Assembly (NCBI GenBank): GCA_026391215.1
Contig: JAPLDX010000016.1
Location: 1 to 16,852 of the forward strand
DNA: 16,852 nucleotides
Source: Bacteroidia bacterium
Lineage (GTDB): Bacteria > Bacteroidota > Bacteroidia > Bacteroidales > VadinHA17
Reading direction: 5' to 3'
The translations under genes were made by a program, and so were the position numbers. Of this stretch, positions 1,701 to 16,852 are shown piece after piece. The notes under the pieces were generated by a model. It was not told the origin of the DNA. It ran no database searches and was given only the letters and a program-made list of their open reading frames with translations. Numbering within the stretch: position 1 is the stretch's first letter; each line of letters opens with the position of its first letter.

Positions 1701-1701
1701 C

Positions 1702-1733
1702 GGCGCAAAGGCACAAAGGCACAACGGTACAAC
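1702..1733 (+). repeat. 4 degenerate tandem octamers (GGYRCAAM)
   Basis: GGCGCAAA GGCACAAA GGCACAAC GGTACAAC directly after the pgk stop codon. Confidence 0.8.
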
Positions 1734-1747
1734 GACATATACAAACT

Positions 1748-1774
1748 AAGGCTGCTGAAAAATGCAGCCTTTTT
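1748..1774 (+). terminator. Intrinsic terminator of pgk
   Basis: AAGGCTGC-TGAAAAAT-GCAGCCTT followed by a T-run. Confidence 0.85.
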
Positions 1775-1802
1775 CTTAAAACAAACCTGTATTAAAATCC
1801 GT

Positions 1803-1810
1803 TATCTTTG
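1803..1810 (+). promoter_or_regulatory. Bacteroidota -7 promoter element for the lipoprotein/LuxE pair
   Basis: TATCTTTG ends 8 nt before the ATG at 1819. Confidence 0.65.
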
Positions 1811-1818
1811 TACATGCA

Positions 1819-2343
1819 ATGAGAAAAGCAGTTTATATATTATTACCACTCTTATTAATCTGTCACTCCTGTAAGAAGAACGATATTCCGACTTCAGGAA
1901 CAATTACTATAGACAATACCCTGACATTTGACCAGACTAAGCAGGCTTATTTTGGTTATGGATTCCTGTTCTCAAAGGCTGAATTGGTATCAACTCTTGA
2001 AAATCCCGGCCCTGACATCACTGTTGACAGTGACGGGACAAACGTATTCTTCCAGGCAGAAAACTATAAAAATTCATTTTATATGGTTGCTGAATTTGAT
2101 GATGCGGCGTCGGCAGAACAGGCATTCAGCAACCTGACAGCCCCGGTTGTGAATACATGGGCAGAGTGGGCCAATCCTGTGAATCAAAACCAGATATGGA
2201 TATACAGATCAGACTCTGAACACTATGCAAAACTGAGGATCATAAGCATTGTTTCAGAGGTGAGGGGTAGCCGGGATTTTGCTGAATGCACCTTTGAATG
2301 GGTTTACCAGCCGGATGGATCATTAACTTTCCCGGGTAAATGA
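1819..2343 (+). CDS. Hypothetical lipoprotein
   Basis: Signal peptide II MRKAVYILLPLLLICHS-C followed by KKND. The mature part looks beta-rich. Stop overlaps the next start (ATGA). Confidence 0.85.
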   Translation: MRKAVYILLPLLLICHSCKKNDIPTSGTITIDNTLTFDQTKQAYFGYGFLFSKAELVSTLENPGPDITVDSDGTNVFFQAENYKNSFYMVAEFDDAASAEQAFSNLTAPVVNTWAEWANPVNQNQIWIYRSDSEHYAKLRIISIVSEVRGSRDFAECTFEWVYQPDGSLTFPGK

Positions 2344-3329
2344 TACCTGAAATAATAAATAGTATATTCAATATAAAGAAACAGGATGATTTTCAGAAAA
2401 CAGCCCTGGAAATATTTAAATATCAGGCTGATAACAATCCTGTATATCGGAATTTCATTAATCTTCTGGGAATAGATCCCGCTACTGTAGCCTCCTGCAG
2501 AGAGATACCTTTTCTTCCAGCCGGATTCTTTAAGCTGCATAAAATCATTACCGGCAGCCAGCAGCCTGTAATTATTTTTGAAAGCAGCGGCACTTCAGAT
2601 TCACCGGTCAGCAAACATTATATTGTTGATCCATTAATATATGAGGAAAGCTTTTCAAGGACATTCAGGCTCTTTTATGGCGATCCGGCAGAATACTTCA
2701 TTGCCGCTCTTTTACCATCATACACTGAAAGGAAGAGCTCTTCACTTGTTTATATGGTGGGCGGGTTGATAAAAAAGAGCGCCTGGCCTGACAGCGGTTT
2801 TTATAAGGAGAAAATTAACGAGTTGCTTATAAATATTAAAACAGCTAAAAGCAAGAACAGGAAAGTCCTTTTAATAGGAGTAAGCTTTGCGCTTCTTGAT
2901 CTTGCTGAACAATATGCCCCGGATCTGTCGGGAGTTATTGTCATGGAAACAGGAGGGATGAAAGGCAGAAGGAATGAGATAACAAGGGGAGAACTGCATT
3001 CAATATTAAAAAAGAGCTATAATTTACAGAATGTCCATTCTGAATATGGTATGACTGAGTTGTTAAGTCAGGCATATTCAAAAGCGGACGGTATCTATTT
3101 CCCTCCACCATGGATGAAGATACTTATAAGGGATCCGCAGGATCCGTTATCTGTAATCACTGAACCCGGAAAGACCGGAGGTATAAATATAATTGATCTG
3201 GCAAATATTTACTCCTGCTCCTTTATTGCGACAGACGATCTTGGAAAACTTCACGAAGGCGGAAGCTTTGAAGTGCTTGGCCGAATAGACAACAGTGATA
3301 TCCGCGGATGTAACCAGATGATTGAATAA
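2340..3329 (+). CDS. LuxE/PaaK-family acyl-protein synthetase-like acyltransferase
   Basis: Adenylate-forming motifs FESSGTS, METGGMKGRR, SEYGMTELLSQAY, IATDDLG and FEVLGR...RGC; 329 aa. Confidence 0.88.
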   Translation: MIPEIINSIFNIKKQDDFQKTALEIFKYQADNNPVYRNFINLLGIDPATVASCREIPFLPAGFFKLHKIITGSQQPVIIFESSGTSDSPVSKHYIVDPLIYEESFSRTFRLFYGDPAEYFIAALLPSYTERKSSSLVYMVGGLIKKSAWPDSGFYKEKINELLINIKTAKSKNRKVLLIGVSFALLDLAEQYAPDLSGVIVMETGGMKGRRNEITRGELHSILKKSYNLQNVHSEYGMTELLSQAYSKADGIYFPPPWMKILIRDPQDPLSVITEPGKTGGINIIDLANIYSCSFIATDDLGKLHEGGSFEVLGRIDNSDIRGCNQMIE

Positions 3330-3393
3330 GTCGTGCAAGTCGTGCAAGTCATGCAGGTCATGCAGGTCATGCAGGTCGTGCAGGTCGTGCAAG
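3328..3393. repeat. 7 tandem 9-mers (ARGTCRTGC) filling the gap between convergent genes
   Basis: AAGTCGTGC x2, AAGTCATGC, AGGTCATGC x2, AGGTCGTGC x2, then AAG. Confidence 0.95.
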
Positions 3394-3399
3394 ACAATT

Positions 3400-4608
3400 C
3401 TAGATTCCGAGTTTTAATTTGATTTCCGGTGGAATACCATTCTTATGGACCATGATAAACAGAGTCTTTGCCCTGACATAGCTTTCTGACATATTCAGAT
3501 ATCCTCCAAAAGCATTCCTGTCAGTTCCCCAGGAGTTTTTAGTCTTGTAGTATTTTGTTCCGTTCTGGTCTTTAGCGACTCCGGTAAGGTGCATAAGATG
3601 ATCATCGGTGGTTGTGAAGCTCTCATAGCCCGCCTGCCGCAGCTCCTGTGTCACATTTATCTCGGGACCAGGATTTACCGGCAGGACAGGAGTCGCCGGA
3701 CCCTGACCAGGTGCTCTTTCCAGCCTGGCCCTGTCACTCATCTGACCTCTTTCATTTGACGGGAGCTGAGGCAGAATGGCATATCCGTTTGTGTGTGAGA
3801 ATCCTCTTTCACTTACATCTCCATCCCAGTTAACAGTATAACCGTTATTGAATGAATAATCCATGATCTCAATCAGCTCATCCAACGGGACATTGTAGAA
3901 TTGAGCCATTGACCAGTTATCGGGCACTTCAAGAATACCCTGGGTGTAAAACGGGAAATGGGTGAATGATGTTATTTGAATGTAATCATCGGGATTGATA
4001 TTCAGGCTTGCAGCAAACGATTTCGGGGTATAGGTAACATCCTTATATGTAAATGATTCAGGATATTCTCCAAGATACGAATCCAGCACAGCATTGACGA
4101 TTTGATGATATTGAGTGCTTTCATTTTTACGTTCCACAGGAACAGATGCTACAGCATTTATAAATTCCTGCAGCTCGCTGTGATTATGAAGAGTCGATCC
4201 GTAATTCAATCCGGGATAGATCTCATCAGGGACAATTCCGTATTCCGTGAACACTCTCATCCAGTCGTGTGAAAGGCTTCCGGGGCCAAGGTTTCCTTTT
4301 CCCCTTCGCAGGTAATTATCTTTTAACCTGTCTATATAATTCTGTCTTACTATGTACATTTCTGACAGGTCATACTCTTCCCTGCCCATCCTGAGCAATT
4401 CGGACTCAATGAATGACGTTGTGGCAAAGCACCAGCAGGTTCCTGTCGCAGACTGGTTCTTTACGGGAGTGGCTTTCAAATCCACGACATATGTGAATTT
4501 ATAACCTTCCTCGGTTTTTGGCTGTGGAGCTGCTGCATCTTTCTTTTGAGCACTTACTGGCACCAGTGAAGAAGCAATCAATGCAACAAATAACAAACGG
4601 ATTTTCAT
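3400..4608 (-). CDS. Exported papain-family (C1, bleomycin hydrolase/aminopeptidase C-like) cysteine peptidase
   Basis: Signal peptide; catalytic motifs QSATGTCWCF (Gln/Cys), DDHLMH (His) and KNSWG (Asn). Confidence 0.93.
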   Translation of the reverse strand: MKIRLLFVALIASSLVPVSAQKKDAAAPQPKTEEGYKFTYVVDLKATPVKNQSATGTCWCFATTSFIESELLRMGREEYDLSEMYIVRQNYIDRLKDNYLRRGKGNLGPGSLSHDWMRVFTEYGIVPDEIYPGLNYGSTLHNHSELQEFINAVASVPVERKNESTQYHQIVNAVLDSYLGEYPESFTYKDVTYTPKSFAASLNINPDDYIQITSFTHFPFYTQGILEVPDNWSMAQFYNVPLDELIEIMDYSFNNGYTVNWDGDVSERGFSHTNGYAILPQLPSNERGQMSDRARLERAPGQGPATPVLPVNPGPEINVTQELRQAGYESFTTTDDHLMHLTGVAKDQNGTKYYKTKNSWGTDRNAFGGYLNMSESYVRAKTLFIMVHKNGIPPEIKLKLGI

Positions 4609-4627: not shown

Positions 4628-4993
4628 CTATTTCAAAGTAGGGTAAAATGCATTCTCTATGTGATCAATATCGGGTTTATCATCCTTCATTATTATTATG
4701 ATTACATCAAAACGACTCTCTTTATCAATTTTGTTCCGATTGACATAATTCTCTGCTGCAAATATAATTGATCTCTGTTTTTCCCTGTTTATGGCTTTCC
4801 TTGGATCATCCTTAAAATCAGCAGAACGTGTTTTGACTTCAACAAAAACAATATAATCCTTGTTTTCCGCAATTATATCAATCTCAAGCTTTCCTGATTT
4901 CCAGTTCCGTTTCAGGATCCTGAAACCTGAGTCTTTAAGGTGATTTACAGCAATATCTTCACCGGTGGGGCCAAGATTCTGGAGATCTGTCAT
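4628..4993 (-). CDS. yraN: YraN/UPF0102 family PD-(D/E)XK nuclease-like protein
   Basis: GEDIA...RNW...EIDIIA...FVEVKTR...RFDVI...HIENAF pattern; 121 aa. Confidence 0.95.
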   Translation of the reverse strand: MTDLQNLGPTGEDIAVNHLKDSGFRILKRNWKSGKLEIDIIAENKDYIVFVEVKTRSADFKDDPRKAINREKQRSIIFAAENYVNRNKIDKESRFDVIIIIMKDDKPDIDHIENAFYPTLK

Positions 4994-4994
4994 T

Positions 4995-5636
4995 TTATAT
5001 TTCTATAAGTTTATTCCTTATTGCAAACAGAATAAGGCTCGCAGTATTCTTCGAATTTGTCTTTCCCAGGAGGTTAGCCCTGTGCTTATCCACGGTTCTT
5101 TTACTTATGAATAATGTATCTGCAATTTCCTGGTTTGAAAGGCCTTCGCATATTTTGTAAAGCACTTCCTTCTCTCTTTTTGACAGATTGGCTGATTTGC
5201 TTTCCTGCTCACGGTGTTTGATCTTCTGTATGACATGGTAAAGCAGCTCCTGTGAAAAATAGCTTCCTCCTTTTATTACTGTAAGTATGGCTTCTTTAAC
5301 TTCAGATATATCGGAGTCTTTGAGTAAAAATCCTTTTGCTCCCGCATCGACCATCTTATAATAATATTCTTCCTCTCCATACATTGACAATGCTATTACG
5401 CTGATTGCGGGACATATTTTGAGACCTTTCCTGGTCGCTTCTATTCCATCCATTTCCGGCATATTTATATCCATCAGTGCAATATCGGCCGGGCAGGTTT
5501 TAATTAATGTAAGGAACTCTTCTCCGTTGGATGCTTCTCCGGTTACTTCAAATTCCGGGAAGGAATTAAGGAGTATCTTTAGTCCGTTCCTGAAAAGCTG
5601 ATGATCATCAGCAATTATAATCCGTGTTTTTTCCAT
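4995..5636 (-). CDS. NarL/LuxR-family response regulator
   Basis: Receiver domain ADDH...MDINMPEMDG...GFLLK; LuxR HTH LSKREKEVL...GLSNQEIA...ISKRTVDKHRANL. Confidence 0.96.
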   Translation of the reverse strand: MEKTRIIIADDHQLFRNGLKILLNSFPEFEVTGEASNGEEFLTLIKTCPADIALMDINMPEMDGIEATRKGLKICPAISVIALSMYGEEEYYYKMVDAGAKGFLLKDSDISEVKEAILTVIKGGSYFSQELLYHVIQKIKHREQESKSANLSKREKEVLYKICEGLSNQEIADTLFISKRTVDKHRANLLGKTNSKNTASLILFAIRNKLIEI

Positions 5637-5653
5637 TTATGGACTCTCCAGTA

Positions 5654-6610
5654 TTATGAGTCTTCGTCAATTACTTTGATCAATGCTGTCGTTCCTTTTC
5701 CGTCGGAGCTTTCAAGTATAAAAACACCTTCAACCGATTTAACGCGTGTCTCAATATTTGACAGTCCCATGCCTTTATTATCTTCCTTATTCAGGTTTGA
5801 AGTATCGAAACCACGACCATTATCATAGTATTGCAAGGTAACAAATTTTTCATGTTTATTGAGCTCAATATCTATCCTGGAAGCTCCGGAATGACGGATG
5901 GAATTATTAATGAGCTCGCATACAGCTCGATAAATAACGACCTCCTTATCATTTTCCATGCGCTGGTTTTCCATATTTGATTTAAAATCAATCTCAACTA
6001 CCTTGTTCTGGCTGATCTTTGTGGTGAAGGCGCTTATGGCGCTGGTAAGGCCGAAATTTGACAGGACATGAGGGCTCAGGTTGTTGGACACATCTTTTAT
6101 AGTACTTAATGCTTCATTCACGAGATAGTTGGTATTGTTAAGGATTTCAATGCCAACGGGATCTTTTATCTTGTCATTCAGCGATGATATTGACATTTTT
6201 ACAGTCGAAAGAAGCGGGCCAAGACCATCATGTAGATCATTGGCAAATCTTCTCCTTTCATTTTCTTCAGTATTTATTATTGCATTCAGTACCCTTCTTT
6301 CTGTCCTGGCACGGTCAATCTCTGCCTTTTTAAGAGAGTAGAAGATCTCACGTATAAGGATCACGCCAGCGATGATCATGATTGATACTAGAACCCCTGT
6401 CCATTCGTCAATCATCTGCCATGTATAAGACGGCGTTCCTCGGAAAATCTCAAACAGCTGAATTATTTTCCGGACTGCCATTAAAGCGAACGACAGGGAA
6501 ATAAGGATCCATGAGAGCCTGTATTTTGTCAATTTTATGAAACTAAGGGCAATTGAGGCTGCAATGATCTGCAGGACAATGGAGATGATGAGAGCAACAA
6601 GTCGTACCAT
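5654..6610 (-). CDS. HisKA_3 (NarX/DesK-like) membrane sensor histidine kinase
   Basis: About 3 N-terminal hydrophobic helices; H-box EENERRRFANDLHDGLG, N-box ELINNSIRHS, G1 DNGRGF, G2 GMGL. Confidence 0.95.
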   Translation of the reverse strand: MVRLVALIISIVLQIIAASIALSFIKLTKYRLSWILISLSFALMAVRKIIQLFEIFRGTPSYTWQMIDEWTGVLVSIMIIAGVILIREIFYSLKKAEIDRARTERRVLNAIINTEENERRRFANDLHDGLGPLLSTVKMSISSLNDKIKDPVGIEILNNTNYLVNEALSTIKDVSNNLSPHVLSNFGLTSAISAFTTKISQNKVVEIDFKSNMENQRMENDKEVVIYRAVCELINNSIRHSGASRIDIELNKHEKFVTLQYYDNGRGFDTSNLNKEDNKGMGLSNIETRVKSVEGVFILESSDGKGTTALIKVIDEDS

Positions 6611-6630
6611 GATAAATGGATTAGGTCATA

Positions 6631-6662
6631 CAAAAATAGGAGTAATTTTTAAAAAGGTGCAA
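6631..6662 (-). promoter_or_regulatory. Promoter of the HK-RR cluster
   Basis: Minus-strand TATTTTTG (6631-6638), with TTG (6660-6662) 21 nt upstream. Confidence 0.6.
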
Positions 6663-6687
6663 CGGTGCAACGGTGCAACGGCTCAAC
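6656..6687 (+). repeat. 4 tandem octamers of the same family as 1702-1733
   Basis: GGTGCAAC x3 plus GGCTCAAC. Two more units lie inverted at 6830-6845 (GGCGCAAG GGCACAAA on the minus strand). Confidence 0.85.
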
Positions 6688-6698
6688 GGGAAAGGAAG

Positions 6699-6829
6699 GA
6701 CCCCCGTCACGCCGTAGCGTGACTGCCCCCTGGCAGGGGGCTTAAACTTTATTTACTATCAAATTTTCATATGGGAAGGGTTTAGCCCCCCTACTAGGGG
6801 GGTGTTCCGCTTTAGCGGAACGGGGGGTC
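6699..6829. repeat. GC-rich bipartite palindromic element (REP/REPIN- or MITE-like)
   Basis: Terminal inverted repeat GACCCCCG...CGGGGGGTC; four hairpins at 6706-6723, 6725-6741, 6786-6802 and 6804-6821; AT-rich core. Confidence 0.75.
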
Positions 6830-6860
6830 TTTGTGCCCTTGCGCCTTTTTATTATATTTG
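6830..6860 (+). promoter_or_regulatory. Canonical Bacteroidota promoter of waaA
   Basis: TTTG (6830-6833), 19 nt, then TATATTTG (6853-6860), ending 15 nt before the ATG. Confidence 0.75.
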
Positions 6861-6875
6861 ACCACTTAAGATAGA

Positions 6876-8099
6876 ATGAGATTACTTTATAATATTGGCA
6901 TAGAGCTGCTTACAGGATTAGCCTGGCTGATTTCGCCTTTTAATCAAAAGGTCCGGTTGTGGACTAATGGCCGCAAAAACTGGTTTGAAATATTGAAAAA
7001 GAAAATCAGTTCGGGGGAGAGATATGTATGGATACATTGTGCTTCGCTTGGAGAGTTTGAGCAGGGGAGACCGGTTATTGAAGCCTTGAAAAAGGAAAAA
7101 CCCCATATTAAAATAGTACTTACTTTTTTTTCTCCATCAGGATATGAGATAAGGAAGAATTACCAGATGGCTGATATAATATGCTATTTGCCACCCGATA
7201 CTCGGGGCAATGCAGAAAAGTTCATAGAGATGATAGATCCTGCCGTTGTGATATTCGTTAAATATGAATTCTGGCATAACTACCTTACCATCCTCGGCAA
7301 AAAGAAAATTCCATTGTATCTCATCTCGGGTATATTTAACAAGGACCAGAATTTCTTTAAATGGTACGGATCTTTCTTCAGGAGGATACTGAAGAACTTC
7401 AGCTGGTTTTTTGTTCAGGATCAGCAATCTCTTGAACTGCTGCGTACTATTGGTCTTGAAAATGTCACTGTTGCCGGAGATACCAGATTTGACAGGGTTA
7501 TGCAGGTTGCTGGCAGTGCCATGGATATTCCACAGCTGGAACGCTTCAGGGGGAATGAAAAGCTTTTCCTTGCAGGCAGCAGCTGGGAAAAGGATGAGGA
7601 AATAATTACGACATATATCAACAGGTTCCCTGACAGGATGAAATGGGTTTTCGCCCCGCATGAGATCGACAGTGGAAATATCGAAAGACTGGTTAAGCTT
7701 TTAGAAGTAAAATATGTAAAGTTTTCCGGATTTACTGATGGAGATGCTGATGCAAGGGTGTTGATAATTGATAACATTGGCATGCTCTCTTCAGCTTACC
7801 GCTATGCACACATTGCTGAAATAGGTGGAGGATTCGGTAAAGGGATACATAACATTCTTGAACCTGCATGCTGGGGGATCCCTGTTATATTCGGGCCTAT
7901 AAATAAGAAGTTCCGAGAAGCCCTTGAAATGATAAAGGCAGGCGGAGCTCAGACATTCAGAGATTATCGCGGATTTGAAAGTATTATAGACCAATGGCTG
8001 AATGATGAGGGCTTATATAAAAAAACTGCTGATGCTGCCGGAATATTTGTAAGGGAAAACACCGGTGCCACCGATAGAATCATGAAGGGAATCGTGTGA
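6876..8099 (+). CDS. waaA: 3-deoxy-D-manno-octulosonic acid (Kdo) transferase
   Basis: WIHCASLGEFEQ, TFFSPSG, KYEFW, GDTRFDRV, AGSSW, APHE, IGGGF and HNILEPA motifs. Confidence 0.96.
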   Translation: MRLLYNIGIELLTGLAWLISPFNQKVRLWTNGRKNWFEILKKKISSGERYVWIHCASLGEFEQGRPVIEALKKEKPHIKIVLTFFSPSGYEIRKNYQMADIICYLPPDTRGNAEKFIEMIDPAVVIFVKYEFWHNYLTILGKKKIPLYLISGIFNKDQNFFKWYGSFFRRILKNFSWFFVQDQQSLELLRTIGLENVTVAGDTRFDRVMQVAGSAMDIPQLERFRGNEKLFLAGSSWEKDEEIITTYINRFPDRMKWVFAPHEIDSGNIERLVKLLEVKYVKFSGFTDGDADARVLIIDNIGMLSSAYRYAHIAEIGGGFGKGIHNILEPACWGIPVIFGPINKKFREALEMIKAGGAQTFRDYRGFESIIDQWLNDEGLYKKTADAAGIFVRENTGATDRIMKGIV

Positions 8100-8107
8100 A
8101 AAGATAC

Positions 8108-8133
8108 TAACAAATTATGCTCATAATTTGTTA
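8108..8133. promoter_or_regulatory. Perfect 12-bp inverted repeat, candidate operator upstream of the TBDR gene
   Basis: TAACAAATTATG-CT-CATAATTTGTTA. It is AT-rich with a 2-nt spacer, unlike a terminator. Confidence 0.5.
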
Positions 8134-8196
8134 AAAACTAATCTTTTTGAAATCCTTAAACATCCTTTAAAGAGATGTAAATTGTTGCTCCGGATT

Positions 8197-8204
8197 TATT
8201 TTTG
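8197..8204 (+). promoter_or_regulatory. Possible -7 element for the TBDR operon
   Basis: TATTTTTG fits TAnnTTTG, 80 nt upstream of the start. No clear -33 element. Confidence 0.35.
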
Positions 8205-8284
8205 AATCATTTCCGGAATTATCAAATAATCAAGTTATTACGATAAGAAACTAAAAACAATTATTAATCCTTAATCCTAATTCT

Positions 8285-11200
8285 ATGATGAAACAATTAA
8301 AACGCACATTTACGATGTTGCTGTTTCTTGCCGTTTCTGCAGGGATATACGGACAGGTAACAACCTCATCAATGAGTGGAAAAGTGACTGACAACAATGG
8401 AGAACCTCTTCCGGCGGCAACTATTGTTGCAACTCATGTTCCCTCAGGTACCAGGTATGGAGCTCTGGCAAATAATCAGGGCCAATATTCCATTCAGGGT
8501 ATGCGTCCTGGTGGTCCTTATTCAGTCAATGTAAGTTTCATTGGCTACAAAACCCAGAGTTACACTGAGATTACCCTGTTGCTTGGAGAAAATACAACCC
8601 TGAACTCGACCATGGCATCAACCACGACCGAAATGACCGAGGTTACCGTGGTTGGTTACGCGACATCAAAATTCAATACCACGCAAACCGGTGCAGTGAC
8701 GAATATCTCAAATACCCAGTTAGCTAATATGCCTACAGTAAGCCGCAGTATTATAGATGTTACCCGCCTTTCACCTTACGGAGGGAATGGTATGAGCTTT
8801 GTAGGCGCAGATGGTCGTACGGCTAACTTTACAGTGGATGGAGCGAATTTCAACAACAACTTCGGTTTGAGTTCTGCTCTGCCCGGTGGAGGCAACCCAA
8901 TTTCTATTGAATCTATCGAAGAATTACAGGTTGTAATCGCTCCATATGATGTTCGTCAGACTAACTTTATAGGTGGTGGTGTAAACGCTATTACAAAATC
9001 CGGGACAAATACCTTTAAAGGCAGCGCCTATACTTATCACAGAAATGAAAACATGCATGGTGATGCTGTTAATGGTATGCAAATCGCAGGTGCGCGTGCT
9101 GTTGACCGCAATACATCTTATGGTTTTACTTTTGGCGGACCTATTGTTAAAAACAAATTGTTCTTATTTGTAAACGGTGAAATGGCTAAAACACCAACCG
9201 TTGTCAATCGTTGGAGAGCTTCAACGGATGGTGTCGCCGATGCCGACAATTATATTTCCCGCACAACAGAAAGCGATCTTCAAACAGTTTCTGATTTTGT
9301 TAAAAGCAGGTATGGATATAATACGGGATCGTTTACAAATTTCCCTGCTGATGAAAACAACTACAAACTTCTTGCGCGTTTGGATTGGAATATAACAGAC
9401 AAACATCATCTGGCCCTGCGTTATAACTACACAAAAAACCTTTACTGGAGCTCTCCAAATGCTTCATCTATGGACGGAGGTACCCGTATGTCTGAGGCAA
9501 GGATGTCACAAGCCTCAATGTCTTATGCAAACTCGATGTATTCTATGAACAATCTTGTTCATTCATTCTCTTTTGACTTAAACAGCCGATTGTCAGATAA
9601 CTTATCTAACCAGTTACTGGCAACATTCTCAAAACTTGACGATGTCCGCGGATCTACTTCCGATGAATTCCCTTTCATCGATATTTTGAAAGACGGACAA
9701 GCCTATCTCTCTTTGGGGTATGAGCTTTTCACCTGGAACAATGCTGTTCACAACAACGTTTTGAATATCAAAGACGAACTAACACGCTATTTAGGCAATC
9801 ATAAAATTGTAGCTGGAATAGCTTACGAATACAAGATGGCAGATAATGCTTATATGCGTAACGGTACAGGATACTATCGCTACTCAAGTCTTGACGACTT
9901 CTTAAACGAAGCAACACCTGAAATTGTAAACTTAACATATGGTTATGATGGAGAGAGCAATCCTGCAGCTCGCATAAGAACAAACAAAATTGGAGTTTAC
10001 GGGCAAGATGATTGGAGGGTTAATACAAATTTCAAACTTTCTTATGGACTTCGTATAGATGGGCTTTTCTTCGATAATAATGATCTGATGACAAACCAAG
10101 CTATTTATGACCTTGATTATTCCGGTCGTAATATCGATACAGGAGAATGGCCTACAGCAAATCTCATATTCTCTCCACGCATAGGTTTTGTGTGGGACGC
10201 ATTTGGCGACAAGAGCCTGAAAGTACGCGGAGGTACCGGTCTTTTCTCGGGTAATTTACCGCTTGTATTCTTCACCAATATGCCTACCAACGGTGGAATG
10301 GTACAGTATCAGGCACAGATAAATGCGGCGAACGCAGCAAAAAAAGGTTTCACAATGGATGAATTTGCCGGCGGTCTTGTAACTGATGCTGACGGAAATG
10401 CTACTACTGCTGCACTTTATGATAAGTTAATATCATTGGGATATCCTTCAACGATTTCTCCCGAAGACGGGACTGTTCCTTCTGCTGTTAATGGTGTAGA
10501 TCCAAATTTCAAAATGCCGCAAGTATGGAAAACGTCACTTGCTGTTGATTATGCATTCAAAACATCTTTCCCATTCTCTGTAACGGTAGAAGGAATTTAC
10601 AACAAAACAATCAACGGTGTTTCTATTTCTGACTGGAGTATTCCAAATGTTGGTGGTTTCTCCCGTTTCAACGGTGTTGACAATCGTCCGATTTATCCTG
10701 CCGGTTATCGTACCAACACAAAAGCCTTTGTGCTGGAAAGCACAAGCCTCGGTTATGGCTGGTCAGGTAACATTACTATCAATGCTCAACCGGCAAAATG
10801 GCTCAATTTGATGGCTGCCTATGCACACACGGTTGCCAAAGATGTGACCGGGATGCCCGGATCGGCTGCAGAATCTGCATTTACATACGTGCCCACGGTG
10901 GAAGGTCCCAACTTCATCAGATTGCACAATTCCCAATACAACACACCCGATCGTCTGGTGACTTCGCTTACTGCCAACGACAACAGCGGTAATCACTATA
11001 GCCTTATCTATGAAGCATGGCTTGGTGGAGCAAACTACTCATACATGATGGTTAACGATATCAACAGTGACGGTTACAACTACGATGCAATCTATGTTCC
11101 CACCGACGCTGATGTGGAAAGCAATCAATTCCGGTTTGTTTCGGCAGACGACCAAACCCGCTTTATGGACTATGTTCATGCCAACAGTTATTTGAAAAAT

Positions 11201-11560
11201 CACCAGGGGGAATATGCAGAGCCCTATAGCGTTTACTCTCCCTGGGTTCATCGCATTGACTTTGGCTACAAACACGATTTTGTTTTTAATGCGGGCAAAG
11301 ACAAACATACGCTGCAACTTAGCCTCGATCTCAAAAATGTGCTGAACCTGTTTAACTCTGAATGGGGTGTCGCCAAATATCTGAATCCGGCAATCGGTTC
11401 GGAAGCTCGTATCCTCAAATATGAAGGTGTGGATGCTGAAGGAGTGGCTACATTCTCCACACCCTCTTCAATCAACGGTGATACCAAAACATTCACACCA
11501 AGCTACTCATTGGGTCAGTGCTGGTATGCTTTAATAGGCATCAAATATATTTTCAACTAA
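8285..11560 (+). CDS. Oar-like TonB-dependent outer-membrane receptor with N-terminal carboxypeptidase-regulatory-like domain
   Basis: Signal peptide; SGKVTD..GEPLP..GGPYSVNVSFIGY domain; plug motifs NFTVDGANFNNNFGL and GGGVNAITKSGTN; barrel motifs YGQDDW and SPRIGF; C-terminal IGIKYIFN. Start may be 8288. Confidence 0.93.
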   Translation: MMKQLKRTFTMLLFLAVSAGIYGQVTTSSMSGKVTDNNGEPLPAATIVATHVPSGTRYGALANNQGQYSIQGMRPGGPYSVNVSFIGYKTQSYTEITLLLGENTTLNSTMASTTTEMTEVTVVGYATSKFNTTQTGAVTNISNTQLANMPTVSRSIIDVTRLSPYGGNGMSFVGADGRTANFTVDGANFNNNFGLSSALPGGGNPISIESIEELQVVIAPYDVRQTNFIGGGVNAITKSGTNTFKGSAYTYHRNENMHGDAVNGMQIAGARAVDRNTSYGFTFGGPIVKNKLFLFVNGEMAKTPTVVNRWRASTDGVADADNYISRTTESDLQTVSDFVKSRYGYNTGSFTNFPADENNYKLLARLDWNITDKHHLALRYNYTKNLYWSSPNASSMDGGTRMSEARMSQASMSYANSMYSMNNLVHSFSFDLNSRLSDNLSNQLLATFSKLDDVRGSTSDEFPFIDILKDGQAYLSLGYELFTWNNAVHNNVLNIKDELTRYLGNHKIVAGIAYEYKMADNAYMRNGTGYYRYSSLDDFLNEATPEIVNLTYGYDGESNPAARIRTNKIGVYGQDDWRVNTNFKLSYGLRIDGLFFDNNDLMTNQAIYDLDYSGRNIDTGEWPTANLIFSPRIGFVWDAFGDKSLKVRGGTGLFSGNLPLVFFTNMPTNGGMVQYQAQINAANAAKKGFTMDEFAGGLVTDADGNATTAALYDKLISLGYPSTISPEDGTVPSAVNGVDPNFKMPQVWKTSLAVDYAFKTSFPFSVTVEGIYNKTINGVSISDWSIPNVGGFSRFNGVDNRPIYPAGYRTNTKAFVLESTSLGYGWSGNITINAQPAKWLNLMAAYAHTVAKDVTGMPGSAAESAFTYVPTVEGPNFIRLHNSQYNTPDRLVTSLTANDNSGNHYSLIYEAWLGGANYSYMMVNDINSDGYNYDAIYVPTDADVESNQFRFVSADDQTRFMDYVHANSYLKNHQGEYAEPYSVYSPWVHRIDFGYKHDFVFNAGKDKHTLQLSLDLKNVLNLFNSEWGVAKYLNPAIGSEARILKYEGVDAEGVATFSTPSSINGDTKTFTPSYSLGQCWYALIGIKYIFN

Positions 11561-11575
11561 TAAAAAGTACAGACT

Positions 11576-13075
11576 ATGAAATTGAAATATTTTTTCCCAT
11601 TATTCATTGCGGCAGTTGCCTTAATGGTGAGCTGTGACGATGAAGTCTCTATGACGCTGCTTGATGAAATTCAGGTATCGTCGTCTTACGTGTCTATCCC
11701 GGTAGAGGGTGGTTCTACATCCATTACCGTAACAGCTAATGATAGCTGGACAGTAGAGACCAGTATACAATGGCTGACTATCTCTTCAACCTCTGGCACT
11801 GCCGGTGAATCAGAGCTTACGTTTTCAGCTTCATCTACCTTGAATGGTCGCACCGGAGAGGTAAAAATTCAATGTGGAGGCAAAACTCAGAGAATAAACG
11901 TCATCCAGGGCCTGGCAAAAATTGAATCTGCCACCTGTGCAGAGGTAATTGCCGGGCCAAACGACAAGACCTATCAGGTAACCGGGGTTTGTACCTTAAT
12001 AGACAATACAACTTACGGTAACTGGTATTTAAAGGATGCAACAGGTTCCATATATATTTATGGTACTCTTGATGCGAAGGGTGCTACGAAAAACTTTTTA
12101 AGTTTAGGACTTGAAGTGGGGGATGGAGTAACTGTTCAGGGACCAAAAACTACCTACGGAACAACGGTGGAATTGGTAAATGTAACAGTTATCAAAATTT
12201 CTAAATCACTTGTGAAAGTTGATTCGGTAGCAAACGCAACGCTTCCTCTAGAAGGTGGTGAATTTATTACATACCTTACCTGCAAAGGACAAGGCGTATC
12301 GGTGGAAATTCCTGAAGATGCCGTATCCTGGTTGTCAATTTCCTCCATCCAATCGGCAGGAACCAGTTCTGTTGTGAAATTCAAAGCCACTGCCAATGCA
12401 GGCGGAGACCGCAAAACCACAATCACATTCCATACCACTGACGGGACTAAAGACTATTCTGCACAAACAACTCTTACCCAAAAAGGAGCGATTATAAATG
12501 CATCTGTTGCCGAGTTTATTGCGGCTGCAGTCAGCACTACACAATATTATCGTTTGAAAGGTGTTATTACCAGTATTACCGATGCCACAACCGGCAAATT
12601 GAACATCAGAGATTTCTCAGGTGAAGTATATGTTTATAAAATTGTTGATTTTGCCACAAAAGGTCTGAAAGTTGGTGACATTATTACGATTGTCGGAACA
12701 CGTGGCGCATATAGTGGAACTCCACAGGTGAATGGTGCAGTTCTGGAAAGCTTTATTCCTGTAACTGCGGCCACTATTGCAGAGGTGCTGACTAAACCTG
12801 ACGACGCTAATACATACTTTATGGTAACCGGTGTAATTACATCGATTACCAGTACTACATATGGTAATCTTTATTTGAAAGACGGCGCCAGTGAAATCTA
12901 CGTGTATGGCTGTTATCCGGGTTATGGTGCAACAGGCGACTATAGAAAATACCTGATAACTAACAAAGGCATTAAAGTAGGAGACCAACTGACGGTTATT
13001 GCACCGAAGGGATCTTATGGCGGAACACCGCAGCTTTCGAATAGTATTTATTTCAGCCACGTAAGTTCTAAGTAA
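11576..13075 (+). CDS. Surface lipoprotein with two BACON-like domains and three OB-fold-like repeats (putative nucleic-acid binding)
   Basis: Lipobox LMVS-C followed by DDE. BACON signatures SWTV..WLTIS..R.GEV..Q and SWLSIS..DRKTTITF..LTQ. Three repeats of the form vtGvitsI....G.l.l.D..g.iYvY...Gl.VGD..Tv.g....Y.g. Confidence 0.85.
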   Translation: MKLKYFFPLFIAAVALMVSCDDEVSMTLLDEIQVSSSYVSIPVEGGSTSITVTANDSWTVETSIQWLTISSTSGTAGESELTFSASSTLNGRTGEVKIQCGGKTQRINVIQGLAKIESATCAEVIAGPNDKTYQVTGVCTLIDNTTYGNWYLKDATGSIYIYGTLDAKGATKNFLSLGLEVGDGVTVQGPKTTYGTTVELVNVTVIKISKSLVKVDSVANATLPLEGGEFITYLTCKGQGVSVEIPEDAVSWLSISSIQSAGTSSVVKFKATANAGGDRKTTITFHTTDGTKDYSAQTTLTQKGAIINASVAEFIAAAVSTTQYYRLKGVITSITDATTGKLNIRDFSGEVYVYKIVDFATKGLKVGDIITIVGTRGAYSGTPQVNGAVLESFIPVTAATIAEVLTKPDDANTYFMVTGVITSITSTTYGNLYLKDGASEIYVYGCYPGYGATGDYRKYLITNKGIKVGDQLTVIAPKGSYGGTPQLSNSIYFSHVSSK

Positions 13076-13141
13076 GTAATAAGAAACTTTATACCATTGG
13101 TAACAAGGCACGCAGTATAAGTTGCGTGAGAGATAGTAAAA

Positions 13142-13175
13142 GGGGCTGCCTCAAAGAGAGGCAGCTTTCTTTTTT
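13142..13175 (+). terminator. Intrinsic terminator of the TBDR-lipoprotein operon
   Basis: GCTGCCTC-AAAGA-GAGGCAGC followed by TTTCTTTTTT. Confidence 0.9.
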
Positions 13176-13186
13176 ATCAGCGTGCC

Positions 13187-13323
13187 GGCCGTGATGCAAG
13201 CAACGTTCCCAGTTTCTCGATGGTTCAGGTTGACGGCGCTTATCCGACAGAAACCTATTCCACATATCTGAACATAAGCAGGTCTGGAGATTACAGGTTG
13301 TTCTTCGCTATATCTTCAATTAA
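13187..13323 (+). pseudogene. Orphaned, frameshifted 3' end of a second Oar-like TonB-dependent receptor
   Basis: Reads GRDASNVPSFSMVQVDGAYPTETYSTYLN, then a 1-nt frameshift near 13274-13278, then QVWRLQVVLRYIFN-TAA. It is collinear with the intact receptor end GVDAEGVATFS...TKTF...QCWYALIGIKYIFN. Confidence 0.85.
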
Positions 13324-13351
13324 ATTGTAGAATTTTAATTTAGTATAAGGG

Positions 13352-13384
13352 GCCGTTTCATAACATAATTGAGACGGCTTTTTT
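13352..13384 (+). terminator. Second intrinsic terminator, belonging to the TBDR remnant
   Basis: GCCGTTTCA-TAACATAAT-TGAGACGGC (one G-U pair) followed by TTTTTT, 28 nt after the remnant stop. Confidence 0.8.
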
Positions 13385-13502
13385 ATTTGAGTTTTTTCAT
13401 GTCTGCCAGTTATACCCGGGCTTTAACTGGCAATCGAGCATGTGGCCCTCTTTTATTCTAATATGAAGGATAAGAATAAAAGAAAGTAAGAATAACGATG
13501 CA

Positions 13503-14402
13503 CTATTTGAGTATTATCTCAACAGGTCGATGATCAGATACGGTATACCTGTATCCGGGATAGCATTTGTCGGGCATCAACACCATCGTCGTATCAACAT
13601 TTGAAAAGAGTTCATCAGTGATAAGAATATGATCAATATGACTCGGATATGAAGGATATGACCAGTATCCCGGGCTGCCAAGGGCTATTCCCATATCGGT
13701 GAATAAATAATCAGAAGCTGAAGATGCCAGATTGTAAAAAACATTTGTCTCATAAGTTTTTCCGCTTATATCATCGTTATAATCGCCTAATACAATTACG
13801 GGATCATCCATTCTTTGAGAGGTTAAATAACTTTGGAGCTTTTCAGAAGCATCTCTTCTTCTATCTTCATTGACAGTCCCTCCGCAGCATTTAAGATGTA
13901 TATTAATAAGATACAGACTTATTTTGAGAGATTTATGGGTAATGAAAATCTCAAAAGGAGGGCGGGGAAAAGCATATGAGTCATCCGAAAAAAGTAACCT
14001 GGTTTTTGAATCATCGTTTTCTATTTCAGATGACTTGATGATGTATGCAAGATTCCACGGTGATTCGTCAATTGTATAAAAAATACTTTCCCAGCCATCA
14101 AGAGAATCAACAAGAGCTGAAAAATCATTTTCGGAGGCTATTTCCTGAAAAGCAATTATATCAGGATCTGCTTTATTGATGAGTTCCTGAACAATTGAAA
14201 CAGTCTCTTCTCCTTTCTTCGGGTATCCTTCCAGATTTAACGTGACAATCTCAAATGAAGTCTTACTCCCGGGAGTGATGCAATCATCAAAAACAGAAAC
14301 CTCTTCTTTTTTTTCCGGTAAAGGGATTTTTTTACAAGATTGCTGTATGGCCAGTAATAATGGCAATGAAACTATTAATATTTTGAATGGATTAAACCTC
14401 AT
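13503..14402 (-). CDS. Endonuclease/exonuclease/phosphatase (DNase I-like) lipoprotein
   Basis: EEP motifs TLNL, FQEI, HLK, GDYND, HIDHI and SDHRPV. Start moved from 14444 to 14402 because MRFNPFKILIVSLPLLLAIQQS-C is a clean lipoprotein signal. Confidence 0.92.
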   Translation of the reverse strand: MRFNPFKILIVSLPLLLAIQQSCKKIPLPEKKEEVSVFDDCITPGSKTSFEIVTLNLEGYPKKGEETVSIVQELINKADPDIIAFQEIASENDFSALVDSLDGWESIFYTIDESPWNLAYIIKSSEIENDDSKTRLLFSDDSYAFPRPPFEIFITHKSLKISLYLINIHLKCCGGTVNEDRRRDASEKLQSYLTSQRMDDPVIVLGDYNDDISGKTYETNVFYNLASSASDYLFTDMGIALGSPGYWSYPSYPSHIDHILITDELFSNVDTTMVLMPDKCYPGYRYTVSDHRPVEIILK

Positions 14403-14719
14403 AGCCTGATGATAATATGCAAAAATGCAAAAATTACCCGGCATATCAAAAAGCCATATTATGCATCTTTTTAGAATACATCATTAATTAATATAGTTCA
14501 GTGTTTAATATCTTGTTCTTTTATTTAATGTAAGGTACCGGCCTAAAATACATAATTACTTATTTTATAAAATGGCATCAAATCCCTGATATGACAATAA
14601 TACCTGTTTATTAATTAGCACATTATACTGCCGCGTTTGGGTAACACTATGAAAATCAAGGTATAATAAAATAGTTAATAACTATGGGATATACTGTTAA
14701 TAAACTTAAAAATTTTGTC

Positions 14720-14750
14720 TTGCATTGAGATCAACGCTTGTCTAATTTAG
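14720..14750 (+). promoter_or_regulatory. Probable nrdJ promoter
   Basis: TTG (14720-14722), 20 nt, then TAATTTAG (14743-14750), one mismatch to TAnnTTTG. Confidence 0.55.
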
Positions 14751-14824
14751 CAACTACCCACCAAAAATATCAGTGGTCGTTTAATCCTATTATAATCAAG
14801 GACTAACAGTATTATTAAGCATAT

Positions 14825-16852
14825 ATGGGAGAACTATTTGTCCAGGAACCAGCTATTGCACCTGAGAAATCAAAAGATGAACAACTAACAACCGGAGTAC
14901 AGACGGAAGTTGAAGAGAAGGAAATTATAAAGCCGGCAAAGCAGGGAAATAAAAAAGTTGTTTATTCTCACGATGAAGCTGTGCAGGCAAGCATTGAGTA
15001 TTTCAAGGGCGATGAGCTTGCAGCAAGAGTCTGGGCAAATAAATATGCACTGAAGGATTCCTTCGGGAACCTTTATGAAAAAACGCCCGACGACATGCAT
15101 CACCGCCTGGCTCGCGAAATACACAGAATTGAACTGAAATATAAGAATCCTTTGCCTGAAGATCTTATCTACAGCGTTCTTAAGGACTTTAGATATATTA
15201 TACCGCAGGGAAGTCCAATGACAGGAATAGGAAATGAATACCAGATTGCTTCCCTTTCAAATTGCTTTGTCATTGGCAATGACGGTTCATCTGATTCTTA
15301 TGGCGGCATAATGAAGATCGACCAGGAGCAGGTACAGCTGATGAAACGCCGCGGAGGCGTGGGTCACGATCTTTCGCACATCCGGCCCAAGGGTACCCCG
15401 GTGCTAAACAGCGCCCTTACTTCGACAGGGGTGGTTCCATTTATGGAGAGGTACTCTAACTCAACACGTGAAGTTGCACAGGACGGAAGAAGAGGTGCCC
15501 TGATGCTTTCAATATCCATAAAGCATCCGGATTCCGGAAAATTCATAGATGCAAAAATGGAAAGCGGCAAAGTTACAGGCGCTAATGTTTCAGTAAAGAT
15601 CACCGATGAATTCATGAAGGCAGTGGAAGAGAAGAAAATCTTCCGCCAGCAATACCCGATAAACTCAAATAATCCGAAATTCGTAAATGATACTGATGCG
15701 AATGAGCTCTGGACCAAGATAATCCATAATGCATGGAAATCAGCTGAACCCGGTGTACTTTTCTGGGACACCATAATAAGGGAAAGCGTTCCGGACTGTT
15801 ATGCAGATCTTGGCTTTGCAACAGTATCCACAAATCCATGCGGCGAAATACCACTTTGTCCCTATGACAGCTGCAGGCTGCTTGCCATAAATCTTTACAG
15901 CTATGTAAAAAATCCATTTACTCCCGAAGCTGAATTTGATTTTGAGCTGTACAAGGAACACGTAGGCCTGGCTCAGAGGATGATGGATGATATCATTGAC
16001 CTGGAAATGGAGAAGATCGATGCCATACTGGCAAAGATCGATGGAGATCCGGAACCAGACGAATTGAAAATGGTTGAAAGGAACCTCTGGAAGAATATCA
16101 GTAAGAAATCACTGGAAGGAAGAAGGACAGGTATCGGGATCACAGCTGAAGGCGATATGCTGGCAGCACTTGGATTGAGATATGGCACCGGGGAGGCTAC
16201 TGATTTTTCCGTCGGAGTTCATAAGACACTGGCACTTGAAGCCTATAAATCATCAACATACCTGGCAAAGGAAAGAGGTCCATTCACAATTTTTAACGCT
16301 GAACGCGAGAAAAACAATCCTTTCATCCTGAGAATGAAAGAGGCTGACCCTGTGATGTATAACAATATGGTGAAATTCGGCAGGAGAAATATTGCCCTGC
16401 TGACTATTGCACCAACTGGTACTACAAGCCTCATGACACAAACAACATCAGGAATTGAACCCATCTTCTCTATTTTCTACAAACGCAGAAGAAAAGTTAA
16501 TCCGAATGACCTGGATGTTAAGGTAACGTTCAAGGATGAGGTTGGTGATTCATGGGAGGAATTCAATGTGTTCCATCATAAGTTCGTCGATTGGCTCAGG
16601 CTTAACGGATATGATCCTGACGAAGTAACAAGGATGAATGATCAGGAGATAGAATTAATAGTTGCAAAATCACCCTACGCAAAGGCAACTGCCAACGATG
16701 TTGACTGGGTGGCAAAAGTAAAAATGCAGGGAGCAATTCAAAAGTGGGTGGATCATTCAATAAGCGTGACCATCAATCTTCCAGCCGATGCAAAAGAGGA
16801 GATGGTCAGCGAACTATACCTTACAGCATGGAAATCAGGATGCAAGGGAGCA
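14825..16852 (+). CDS. nrdJ: Class II (adenosylcobalamin-dependent) ribonucleotide reductase, 3'-truncated by the window edge
   Basis: Open frame from ATG 14825 to the window end, not in the ORF track. Motifs GDELAARVWANKYALKD, PQGSP, SLSNCFV, RRGGVG, QDGRRGA, STNPCGEIPL, TIAPTGTTS, WVDHSISVTINLP and GCKG. Confidence 0.95.
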   Translation, partial: MGELFVQEPAIAPEKSKDEQLTTGVQTEVEEKEIIKPAKQGNKKVVYSHDEAVQASIEYFKGDELAARVWANKYALKDSFGNLYEKTPDDMHHRLAREIHRIELKYKNPLPEDLIYSVLKDFRYIIPQGSPMTGIGNEYQIASLSNCFVIGNDGSSDSYGGIMKIDQEQVQLMKRRGGVGHDLSHIRPKGTPVLNSALTSTGVVPFMERYSNSTREVAQDGRRGALMLSISIKHPDSGKFIDAKMESGKVTGANVSVKITDEFMKAVEEKKIFRQQYPINSNNPKFVNDTDANELWTKIIHNAWKSAEPGVLFWDTIIRESVPDCYADLGFATVSTNPCGEIPLCPYDSCRLLAINLYSYVKNPFTPEAEFDFELYKEHVGLAQRMMDDIIDLEMEKIDAILAKIDGDPEPDELKMVERNLWKNISKKSLEGRRTGIGITAEGDMLAALGLRYGTGEATDFSVGVHKTLALEAYKSSTYLAKERGPFTIFNAEREKNNPFILRMKEADPVMYNNMVKFGRRNIALLTIAPTGTTSLMTQTTSGIEPIFSIFYKRRRKVNPNDLDVKVTFKDEVGDSWEEFNVFHHKFVDWLRLNGYDPDEVTRMNDQEIELIVAKSPYAKATANDVDWVAKVKMQGAIQKWVDHSISVTINLPADAKEEMVSELYLTAWKSGCKGA

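Follow-up and report, generated by a model that had tools for sequence, protein, structure and literature searches.

The body of an Oar-like TonB-dependent receptor gene that stood between waaA and a ribonucleotide reductase (RNR) gene in a member of the Bacteroidales (VadinHA17; assembly GCA_026391215.1, contig JAPLDX010000016.1) was, as we consider likely, exchanged in place for a horizontally acquired pair of genes, encoding another receptor of this kind and a surface lipoprotein, and the incoming pair would serve in the uptake of nucleic acids. The locus still holds a remnant of the resident receptor and both boundaries of the exchange, relatives preserve the resident state, and the interior is of foreign origin. 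A swap of this sort had been proposed earlier by an original prediction, made from the sequence of this stretch without database searches, and that interpretation is largely supported by our results, with the joins refined. The stretch analysed, referred to below as the window, is one entire contig (C81) of 16,852 bp, belonging to a 3.39-Mb metagenome bin of 135 contigs which is 98.9% complete; public contigs containing the window stretch come from freshwater sediment, and the 20 runs in which it was located include no RNA run. Coordinates are window positions, G-labels denote congener genomes (G000 being the window's own), and L-labels denote fetched loci.

Results

Downstream of the receptor-lipoprotein operon, two reading frames of the segment 13175-13330 together spell the C-terminus of a second receptor. 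The original prediction had placed about 45 amino acids (aa) of an Oar-like tail at 13187-13323; when its extent was set by alignment to the receptors of intact relatives, this remnant was found to occupy 13184..13323 of the plus strand, that is 46 codons followed by TAA. The base said to be missing after AAC at 13273 is indeed absent, the one-base deletion lying at 13274-13275, directly after AAC at 13271-13273, and the 14 of 45 residues reported to match the C-terminus of the intact receptor become 15 of 46 on recount. The remnant, assigned by its homology to intact members and covering the last 46 residues of the barrel only, shares 35 of these residues with the syntenic receptor of G008 and 32 with receptor 1 of G018. 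When the region 13080-13500 was compared by blastn with 24 congeners and 16 genomes of other families, it matched the 3' end of the syntenic receptor gene in G008 (79% over 158 nucleotides (nt), E 3e-30) and in G018 (78%, E 5e-23), and no further receptor 3' end. A profile built from 16 resident 3' ends recognised the window tail at E 2e-34, the best value among shuffled sequences (20 per tail) being E 4, and the alleles nearest to the remnant are those of G105 (81.6%) and G060 (80.3%). Against G105, 25 of 45 codons are identical, 12 differ synonymously only and 8 non-synonymously; the corresponding figures for working alleles are 31, 6 and 9 of 46 codons (G008 versus G105) and 23, 9 and 14 of 46 (G008 versus G018). 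As the codon changes of the remnant resemble those of working alleles, the truncation looks recent, with little apparent neutral decay besides the one-base deletion.

We call resident any receptor of the remnant's type, defined by at least 74% identity to that of G008 over the last 200 residues, and such a receptor is present in 16 of the 150 congeners sampled. All eight loci fetched with both flanks, as well as that of G008, have the order histidine kinase, waaA, one intact resident receptor, RNR, with neither the lipoprotein gene nor the gene of the endonuclease/exonuclease/phosphatase (EEP) family that follows the remnant in the window. It had been suggested that relatives should carry a single intact receptor between waaA and the EEP gene; the single receptor without a lipoprotein was found in nine congeners, but its right neighbour is RNR and the EEP gene is absent. 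The second part of that expectation was borne out, since the C-terminus of the relatives' receptor matches the remnant, and their upstream region and signal peptide match window positions 8100-8353. The intact receptor of the window is only 53% identical in amino acid sequence to the resident receptor of G008.

The RNR gene lies within 1.5 kb downstream of a receptor or remnant in 27 of 30 loci examined, 15 of them of resident type, one with the remnant and 11 with receptors of two more distant types. Because alternative Oar-like types are situated directly upstream of RNR, this slot is, on comparison of sequences, a variable receptor site with much polymorphism throughout the genus. Only five of 150 other congeners have the lipoprotein (G097, G013, G139, G121 and G163), always within this slot, and in G018 a second receptor, 39% identical, follows the resident one. 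At the loci L135-L137 and L140-L148 of other congeners, the receptors directly upstream of RNR are only 38-44% identical to the known types.

At the 5' end of the intact receptor gene (8285-11560, plus strand, 1091 aa), the waaA-receptor intergenic region (8100..8284, plus strand), presumed to contain the promoter and the 5' untranslated region, and the segment coding for the signal peptide (MMKQLK...; 8285..8353, plus strand; aligned to G060 and G105) are both of resident type. This agrees with the proposal that the native promoter and signal peptide were retained, the promoter function being presumed. The upstream region is 72-78% identical to those of the residents in G079, G060, G008 and G018, against a background of 62-66% to the upstream type native to the cassette, and its blastn similarity begins at -166 for G018 and at -61 for G008. 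The signal peptide shares 17 of 24 residues with the G060 resident, to which its first 19 nt are identical, and 15 of 24 with that of G105; these are also the two alleles whose 3' ends lie nearest to the remnant. While the 5' region of the window aligns with resident-type genomes, G097 and G121, it does not align with G013, G139 and the neighbouring clade, which share upstream sequence of another kind, about 240 nt long, and a signal peptide starting with MRKLKF.

Similarity of cassette type, to G013 and G139, sets in at positions +67 to +69 within the coding sequence, and at a 3-nt indel of the mature N-terminus (Q/VTT versus Q/GSTT) the window has the cassette version. Since the cassette form is present from the mature N-terminus onwards, the boundary between resident-type and cassette-type sequence would lie at about 8330..8356 (plus strand), within which the exact crossover is approximate; it falls in sequence homologous between the two types of gene, where the signal peptide ends and the mature protein starts. 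Recombination inside the 5' part of the resident gene was therefore rightly predicted, but its place is the end of the signal peptide and not the vicinity of 8700. A second breakpoint is located at residue 87/88 (about 8545), before which identity to the neighbouring-clade alleles is 65-79% and after which it is 91-98%. Residues 24-87 (8354..8545, plus strand), an N-terminal CarboxypepD_reg segment, represent a genus-local variant of the cassette, with nucleotide identity of 95-96% to G139, 82-96% to G097, 65-79% to the neighbouring-clade cassettes and 64-75% to residents. A uniform phylogeny of the receptor had been named as an argument against the swap; with the jump in identity at residue 87/88, the intact receptor is, to judge from these alignments, a mosaic without a single phylogeny.

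The right boundary can be followed base by base. The operon terminator hairpin (13142-13168, with a T run; -20.2 kcal/mol, z -3.5) and the conserved cassette tail which ends with ATCAGCGT occupy 13142..13183 of the plus strand. This terminator and the tail through ATCAGCGT (13176-13183) are common to the window, G097, G163, G121 and 12 neighbouring-clade loci; immediately after it, the window, G097 and the 12 neighbouring-clade loci carry GCCGGNCGTGAT and then diverge, the window continuing as the resident gene and the neighbouring-clade loci as different sequence. The join coincides with a 13-base patch, TGCCGGNCGTGAT (13183..13195, plus strand), which comprises the resident codons A-G-R-D and is found both in the donor-type tail and in the G008 resident gene, with 12 of 13 bases identical. 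We also considered that the donor tail might itself be an older resident remnant, but local alignments were just 2-3 standard deviations above shuffles and this idea was dropped; the profile of the 16 resident 3' ends likewise found no neighbouring-clade tail above shuffled controls, and no similarity past the patch. As the donor tail has no support as a remnant, the patch is read as a microhomology join. The illegitimate join previously postulated near the resident 3' end is thus upheld, as a microhomology-guided rather than a blunt one.

The claim that a foreign receptor and lipoprotein displaced the resident receptor stands as regards the cross-clade origin of the interior, and is refined by the finding that the pair is widespread in Bacteroidia and occupies the same locus in the neighbouring clade. 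The cassette is 91-98% identical in nucleotide sequence to neighbouring-clade loci, the best match of the receptor being L024. In rpoB, the window's genome and the neighbouring clade are 87.6-88.0% identical at the amino acid and 74.9-76.5% at the nucleotide level, the corresponding values within the genus being 92.6-93.9% and 79.3-82.1%. The rpoB tree consists of two clades split at 100/100, in which a path of about 0.56 substitutions per site separates L024 from the window's genome, and the tree of the cassette is star-shaped, its terminal branches measuring 0.03-0.14. Identity of 91-98% in the cassette, where rpoB is about 75% identical, indicates horizontal transfer. In G163, about 25 nt of tail of the neighbouring-clade type extend past the point at which the window switches to resident sequence, which points to the neighbouring clade as the donor side. 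In a search for the pair, 154 encoded relatives were confirmed and 77 loci kept, with identities of 67-92% for the receptor and 51-92% for the lipoprotein; the names on the records are Paludibacter, Proteiniphilum, Prolixibacteraceae, Carboxylicivirga, Prevotella and others. RNR is adjacent in twenty of these 77 loci, namely those of the five congeners and of the neighbouring clade (L024, L026, L031, L061, L064, L065, L066 and others). A Pfam scan of 12 open reading frames (ORFs) of the window, which left short ORFs unscanned, found no integrase, transposase or other mobility gene.

The intact receptor contains PF13620 (1.4e-20) and PF25183 (1.2e-47), that is CarboxypepD_reg and OMP_b-brl_4 in the Pfam scan. 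The presence of both a CarboxypepD_reg-like N-terminal domain and a large barrel makes it a member of the Oar-like group, with transport as its predicted activity, and Pfam together with nucleotide identity assigns 8546..11560 (plus strand) to the plug and barrel of the incoming protein. No other Oar-like receptor was found in the window's genome by tblastn (alignment of more than 150 residues, E 1e-10), and NCBIfam gave nothing informative for either the receptor or the lipoprotein.

The lipoprotein gene (11576..13075, plus strand) encodes 499 aa. Its N-terminus has a lipobox with Cys20 followed by DDE, which fits the Bacteroidota surface-export motif quoted in PMC12478041. Pfam recognises BACON in two stretches, and a structure model with a predicted local distance difference test score (pLDDT) of 86 has the domain order BACON (31-114), OB (118-211), BACON (211-304), OB (307-396) and OB (397-499). 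Residues 118-211 superimpose on the HIN domains of p204, p202, IFI16 and AIM2 with Z of 10-12 and a root-mean-square deviation of about 2 A over 84-88 residues; these matches, among them 4JBM at Z 11.0, are of fold similarity only. Residues 397-499 resemble the LysRS OB fold (Z 10). The lipoprotein gave no match to DUF5689 (PF18942), not even with the threshold relaxed to E 10, and no match was obtained in the genome either, although the control from B. thetaiotaomicron was matched.

A nuclease or phosphodiesterase gene is adjacent to the pair in four of eight distant loci, and in the other four none lies within the scanned stretch. In L083 the neighbour is Endonuclease_1, in L086 and L097 it is Endonuclease_1 joined to DUF5689, and in L069 it is a phosphodiesterase, with a xanthine/uracil permease two genes further on; in the window, the neighbours of the pair are the EEP-family predicted lipoprotein and RNR. 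The proteins at L086 9693-11594 and L097 2573-4477 (in Maribellus and in a Prolixibacteraceae genome) are secreted ones that combine Endonuclease I with DUF5689 and a type IX sorting domain. The HIN-like OB folds and the nucleases beside relatives suggest that the pair is probably a system for nucleic-acid binding and uptake, in which the OB-fold lipoprotein would be the surface lid of the transporter, functionally like DdbCD.

According to PMC12478041, DdbD, a DUF5689 protein that partners the transporter DdbC in the DNA-utilization locus of B. thetaiotaomicron, is structurally like p202 (PDB 4JBM), and DdbCD is linked there to outer-membrane DNA transport in Riemerella. The window shares with DdbC-DdbD (PMC12478041) and with RA0C_RS04915/04920 of Riemerella anatipestifer (PMC8459023) a TonB transporter beside a surface lipoprotein with a HIN-type OB fold; nuclease genes nearby, present at some loci of the pair, may be a further likeness. 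Unlike in DdbCD, the lipoprotein of the window lacks DUF5689 and is built as BACON-OB-BACON-OB-OB, its transporter is Oar-like with CarboxypepD_reg, and its function is a predicted one. The terms DUF5689, BACON, OB-fold, DNA and CarboxypepD do not occur in the lid preprint of Price et al. (10.1101/2023.03.17.533168).

Several other carrier loci have peculiarities of their own. In G139 (L021/L030, between RNR and the receptor start), the entire cassette is inverted relative to waaA and RNR, and head-to-head with it lies a decayed, frameshifted fragment of a receptor N-domain (about residues 46-124), which is about 70% identical to both types and could not be typed. The receptor of G121 (L022/L043) is 68% identical to that of the window over the first 735 residues and 93% over the last 355; its frame is interrupted repeatedly, a defect found also in RNR and rpoB of the same assembly, and it could be a mosaic allele, a product of sequencing error, or both. 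L064, of the neighbouring clade, has a full resident-type receptor at 1144-4428 and the cassette at 4711-9494, both genes with the MRKLKF-type signal peptide of that clade, so the signal peptide tracks the host clade and not the type of receptor. In L034, a 97-residue receptor N-terminus including the signal peptide (10001-10291) lies between the lipoprotein and a receptor of the second type; this assembly is noisy, with many frameshifts, rpoB among the genes affected.

Discussion

The course of events could be pictured as follows. The ancestor would have possessed a single Oar-like receptor without a lipoprotein between waaA and RNR, as many congeners do. DNA from a related lineage, whose donor would have resembled the neighbouring clade with the pair at the same locus, may then have recombined into the resident gene. 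With the left crossover in or just after the region coding for the signal peptide, the incoming receptor would now be expressed and exported by means of the native intergenic region and signal peptide; the join on the right would have formed on the 13-base patch, between the post-terminator tail of the donor and the A-G-R-D codons of the resident gene. The final 46 codons of that gene and a terminator hairpin would have been left stranded downstream. The mechanism may have been homology-anchored recombination of taken-up DNA, and the replacement could have been completed in one step or by insertion followed by deletion.

A number of observations sit less easily with this history. Over 45 codons, the remnant differs from G105, G060 and G008 by 25-28 nt, from G018 by 32 nt and from the neighbouring-clade resident of L064 by 39 nt, which is only slightly farther. 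The signal-peptide segment is only 72-75% identical in nucleotide sequence to the best resident alleles, and residues 24-87 could be assigned neither to the resident nor to the donor, as their identity of 64-75% to the former does not stand apart from that of 65-79% to the latter. When GC (guanine plus cytosine) content was tried as a mark of foreign origin, it gave no signal, the values being 0.39-0.47 in the cassette and 0.38-0.44 in the flanks. The remnants of other carriers are also unlike that of the window: in G097, which was assembled independently, the right join is the same and about 50 nt are deleted, G163 has 106 in-frame resident codons after its extra donor-type tail, G121 has 24-28 resident codons, with an EEP gene between terminator and remnant, and G013 has the cassette with no remnant. 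Given such variation in length and junction from one carrier to the next, the event has either happened repeatedly or been modified by deletions afterwards. Tandem arrangements are found at the locus as well (resident plus second type in G018, complete resident followed by cassette in L064, and cassette, 97-residue N-terminal receptor fragment and second-type receptor in L034), and a multi-step history through a tandem intermediate is conceivable. Finally, the nucleic-acid function is read only from fold similarity and gene neighbourhood, for a lipoprotein devoid of DUF5689.

One could explain the same remains without recombination within the gene, if the cassette had been placed beside a complete resident receptor and later deletions had removed most of the latter. 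Tandem receptors in G018, L064 and L034 lend some substance to this view, and progressive decay would fit both the varied lengths of the remnants in G163, the window's genome, G121 and G097, and the decayed N-terminal fragment in G139. Tandem receptors in relatives had indeed been foreseen as a finding contrary to the swap, and they do occur (G018 and L064), but their gene order could not yield a tail 3' of the lipoprotein by deletion. In L064, the sole locus where both genes are complete, the resident gene comes first, and deletion cannot leave its tail after the lipoprotein. A tandem with the cassette first would be expected to keep upstream sequence of the MRKLKF type, as G013 does, whereas in the window a resident-type 5' end is fused to the cassette. 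Both scars taken together would require at least two extra events, and we regard this explanation as unlikely, though still deserving attention.

Another possibility is that the finished chimera was built in another congener and imported whole, by homologous replacement in waaA and RNR. The right join is shared with G097, the kind of left boundary with both G097 and G121, and the cassette interior has clearly been exchanged between lineages, all of which such an import would account for. However, the identity of the window's upstream region and signal peptide to those of G097 (73.5% and 66.7%) and G121 (74.1% and 73.9%) is not above that to the residents of G079 (78.4% and 75.4%) and G060 (75.7% and 72.5%). 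Being no closer to G097 and G121 than to residents, the 5' flank of the window looks vertically inherited. Moreover, the remnant of G097 has higher local scores with G018 (45) and G008 (41) than with the remnant of the window (26), and the latter is almost free of neutral decay. We find import of a ready-made chimera quite improbable.

An artefact of assembly or binning, in which contigs of two organisms were joined near 13176-13187, could be imagined for a whole 16.9-kb contig in a metagenome bin of 135 contigs but is hardly credible, because the junction, whose lack of spanning reads had been named as a ground for rejecting the swap, is bridged without differences by contigs that were assembled separately for each of three runs (all belonging to one study, and two of them perhaps the source sample), the independent assembly G097 has the same join, and synteny with relatives is continuous on both sides.

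The in-gene replacement which we favour belongs to known kinds of event, of which it is a natural and well-resolved example; it is not a new mechanism. In cdiA and rhs toxin genes, displaced 'orphan' C-terminal modules are found downstream of the gene. The window resembles them in that a cassette would have recombined in the conserved 5' part and pushed the old C-terminal end downstream, where it is not expressed, and differs from them in that the gene codes for a nutrient receptor instead of a toxin, no immunity gene is involved and just 46 codons are left. Homology-facilitated illegitimate recombination is known from natural-transformation experiments in Acinetobacter and Streptococcus. It likewise involves one homologous anchor, here the 5' part shared by paralogous receptors, with a short patch at the other end and loss of the recipient DNA between them; unlike those experiments, the window presents a natural fossil in an uncultured bacterium, and its anchor is a diverged paralogue, about 65-80% identical. 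The term itself occurs in PMC6336857 and PMC11751169.

In marine bacteria, replacement flexible genomic islands (Alteromonas and Salinibacter; PMC3542563 and PMC6060240) similarly hold divergent sets of surface genes in a fixed slot without mobile-element genes. Such features are present here, as the same flanks enclose divergent contents and the slot is occupied by the cassette in some genomes and in others by a resident receptor or one of at least two further types. Unlike in those islands, the crossover lies within the replaced gene and not in the flanks, so that the 5' end became chimeric and the 3' tail was left stranded, and divergence at the level of the genus was crossed. No description of this locus, or of any TonB receptor of Bacteroidales exchanged within its gene, was found in the limited literature searched. 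The novelty lies in junctions that are resolved, in an interior that came from another clade, and in the family of BACON-OB lipoproteins.

Natural cases in which both scars of a surface-receptor exchange can still be read seem uncommon. This locus would show, at base resolution, how an outer-membrane transporter is replaced inside its own transcription unit, the newcomer taking over the regulation and the export signals of the native gene. The slot that precedes RNR is a hot spot of receptor exchange in an abundant group of uncultured sediment Bacteroidales. The pair is also a candidate second family of transporters scavenging DNA or nucleotides besides DdbCD, with receptors 67-92% identical across orders, and since carriers of the cassette exist under strain names (for instance Proteiniphilum acetatigenes DSM 18083, Limibacterium fermenti me31 and Maribellus sp. 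YY47), it should be amenable to experiment.

A bolder interpretation, which we hold to be doubtful, is that the pair constitutes a self-contained exchange unit for nucleic-acid uptake, spreading in Bacteroidia without a mobility gene and repeatedly entering resident Oar-like genes. The conserved N-terminal domain might then act as the left homology arm and the fixed post-terminator patch as the right landing site, so that the same join could arise independently in different species. Were this true, and were the pair to admit transforming DNA, as is reported for the Riemerella analogue, it would promote its own spread.

Other features of the window

The remnant had been credited with a terminator of its own at 13352-13384, and a hairpin was found there at 13347-13384, followed by a U run (the whole terminator being 13347..13390, plus strand). 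It folds with -18.1 kcal/mol (z -5.7), and none of 200 shuffles was as good. It begins about 25 nt past the stop codon of the remnant, and a hairpin stands in the same relative position after the intact resident genes of G008, G105, G060, G018 and L064. Copies of the segment 13347-13398, 94-98% identical over 23-48 nt, are present at non-syntenic places in six other congeners, and the hairpin also appears, with different flanks, on unrelated contigs of the same metagenome runs. It may be a member of a dispersed family of terminators resembling repetitive extragenic palindromes (REP-like), and not necessarily the original terminator of the resident gene. As a multi-copy repeat within the window's own genome it was discarded, with only 14-nt chance matches. 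An Rfam search of 8000-14900 with E up to 1 gave one sub-threshold snoRNA match within the receptor gene, which was ignored.

The window begins with pgk, an ORF of 174 aa and a LuxE-like gene, followed on the minus strand by genes for a C1 peptidase, a UPF0102 protein, a response regulator and the histidine kinase; then come waaA (6876-8099), the Oar-like receptor, the BACON lipoprotein, the EEP gene (minus strand) and RNR (from 14825). The EEP gene (13503..14444, minus strand; Pfam Exo_endo_phos), with the lowest GC content of the window (0.32-0.36), codes for a predicted lipoprotein which has a lipobox-like N-terminus (...QQSC) and weakly matches xth and MnuA. None of the nine resident-type loci has the gene in this gap. 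The copy in G121, 58-61% identical, is located between the cassette terminator and the remnant, and that in L065 (48%) beyond RNR; the EEP genes look like separate insertions next to the swap.

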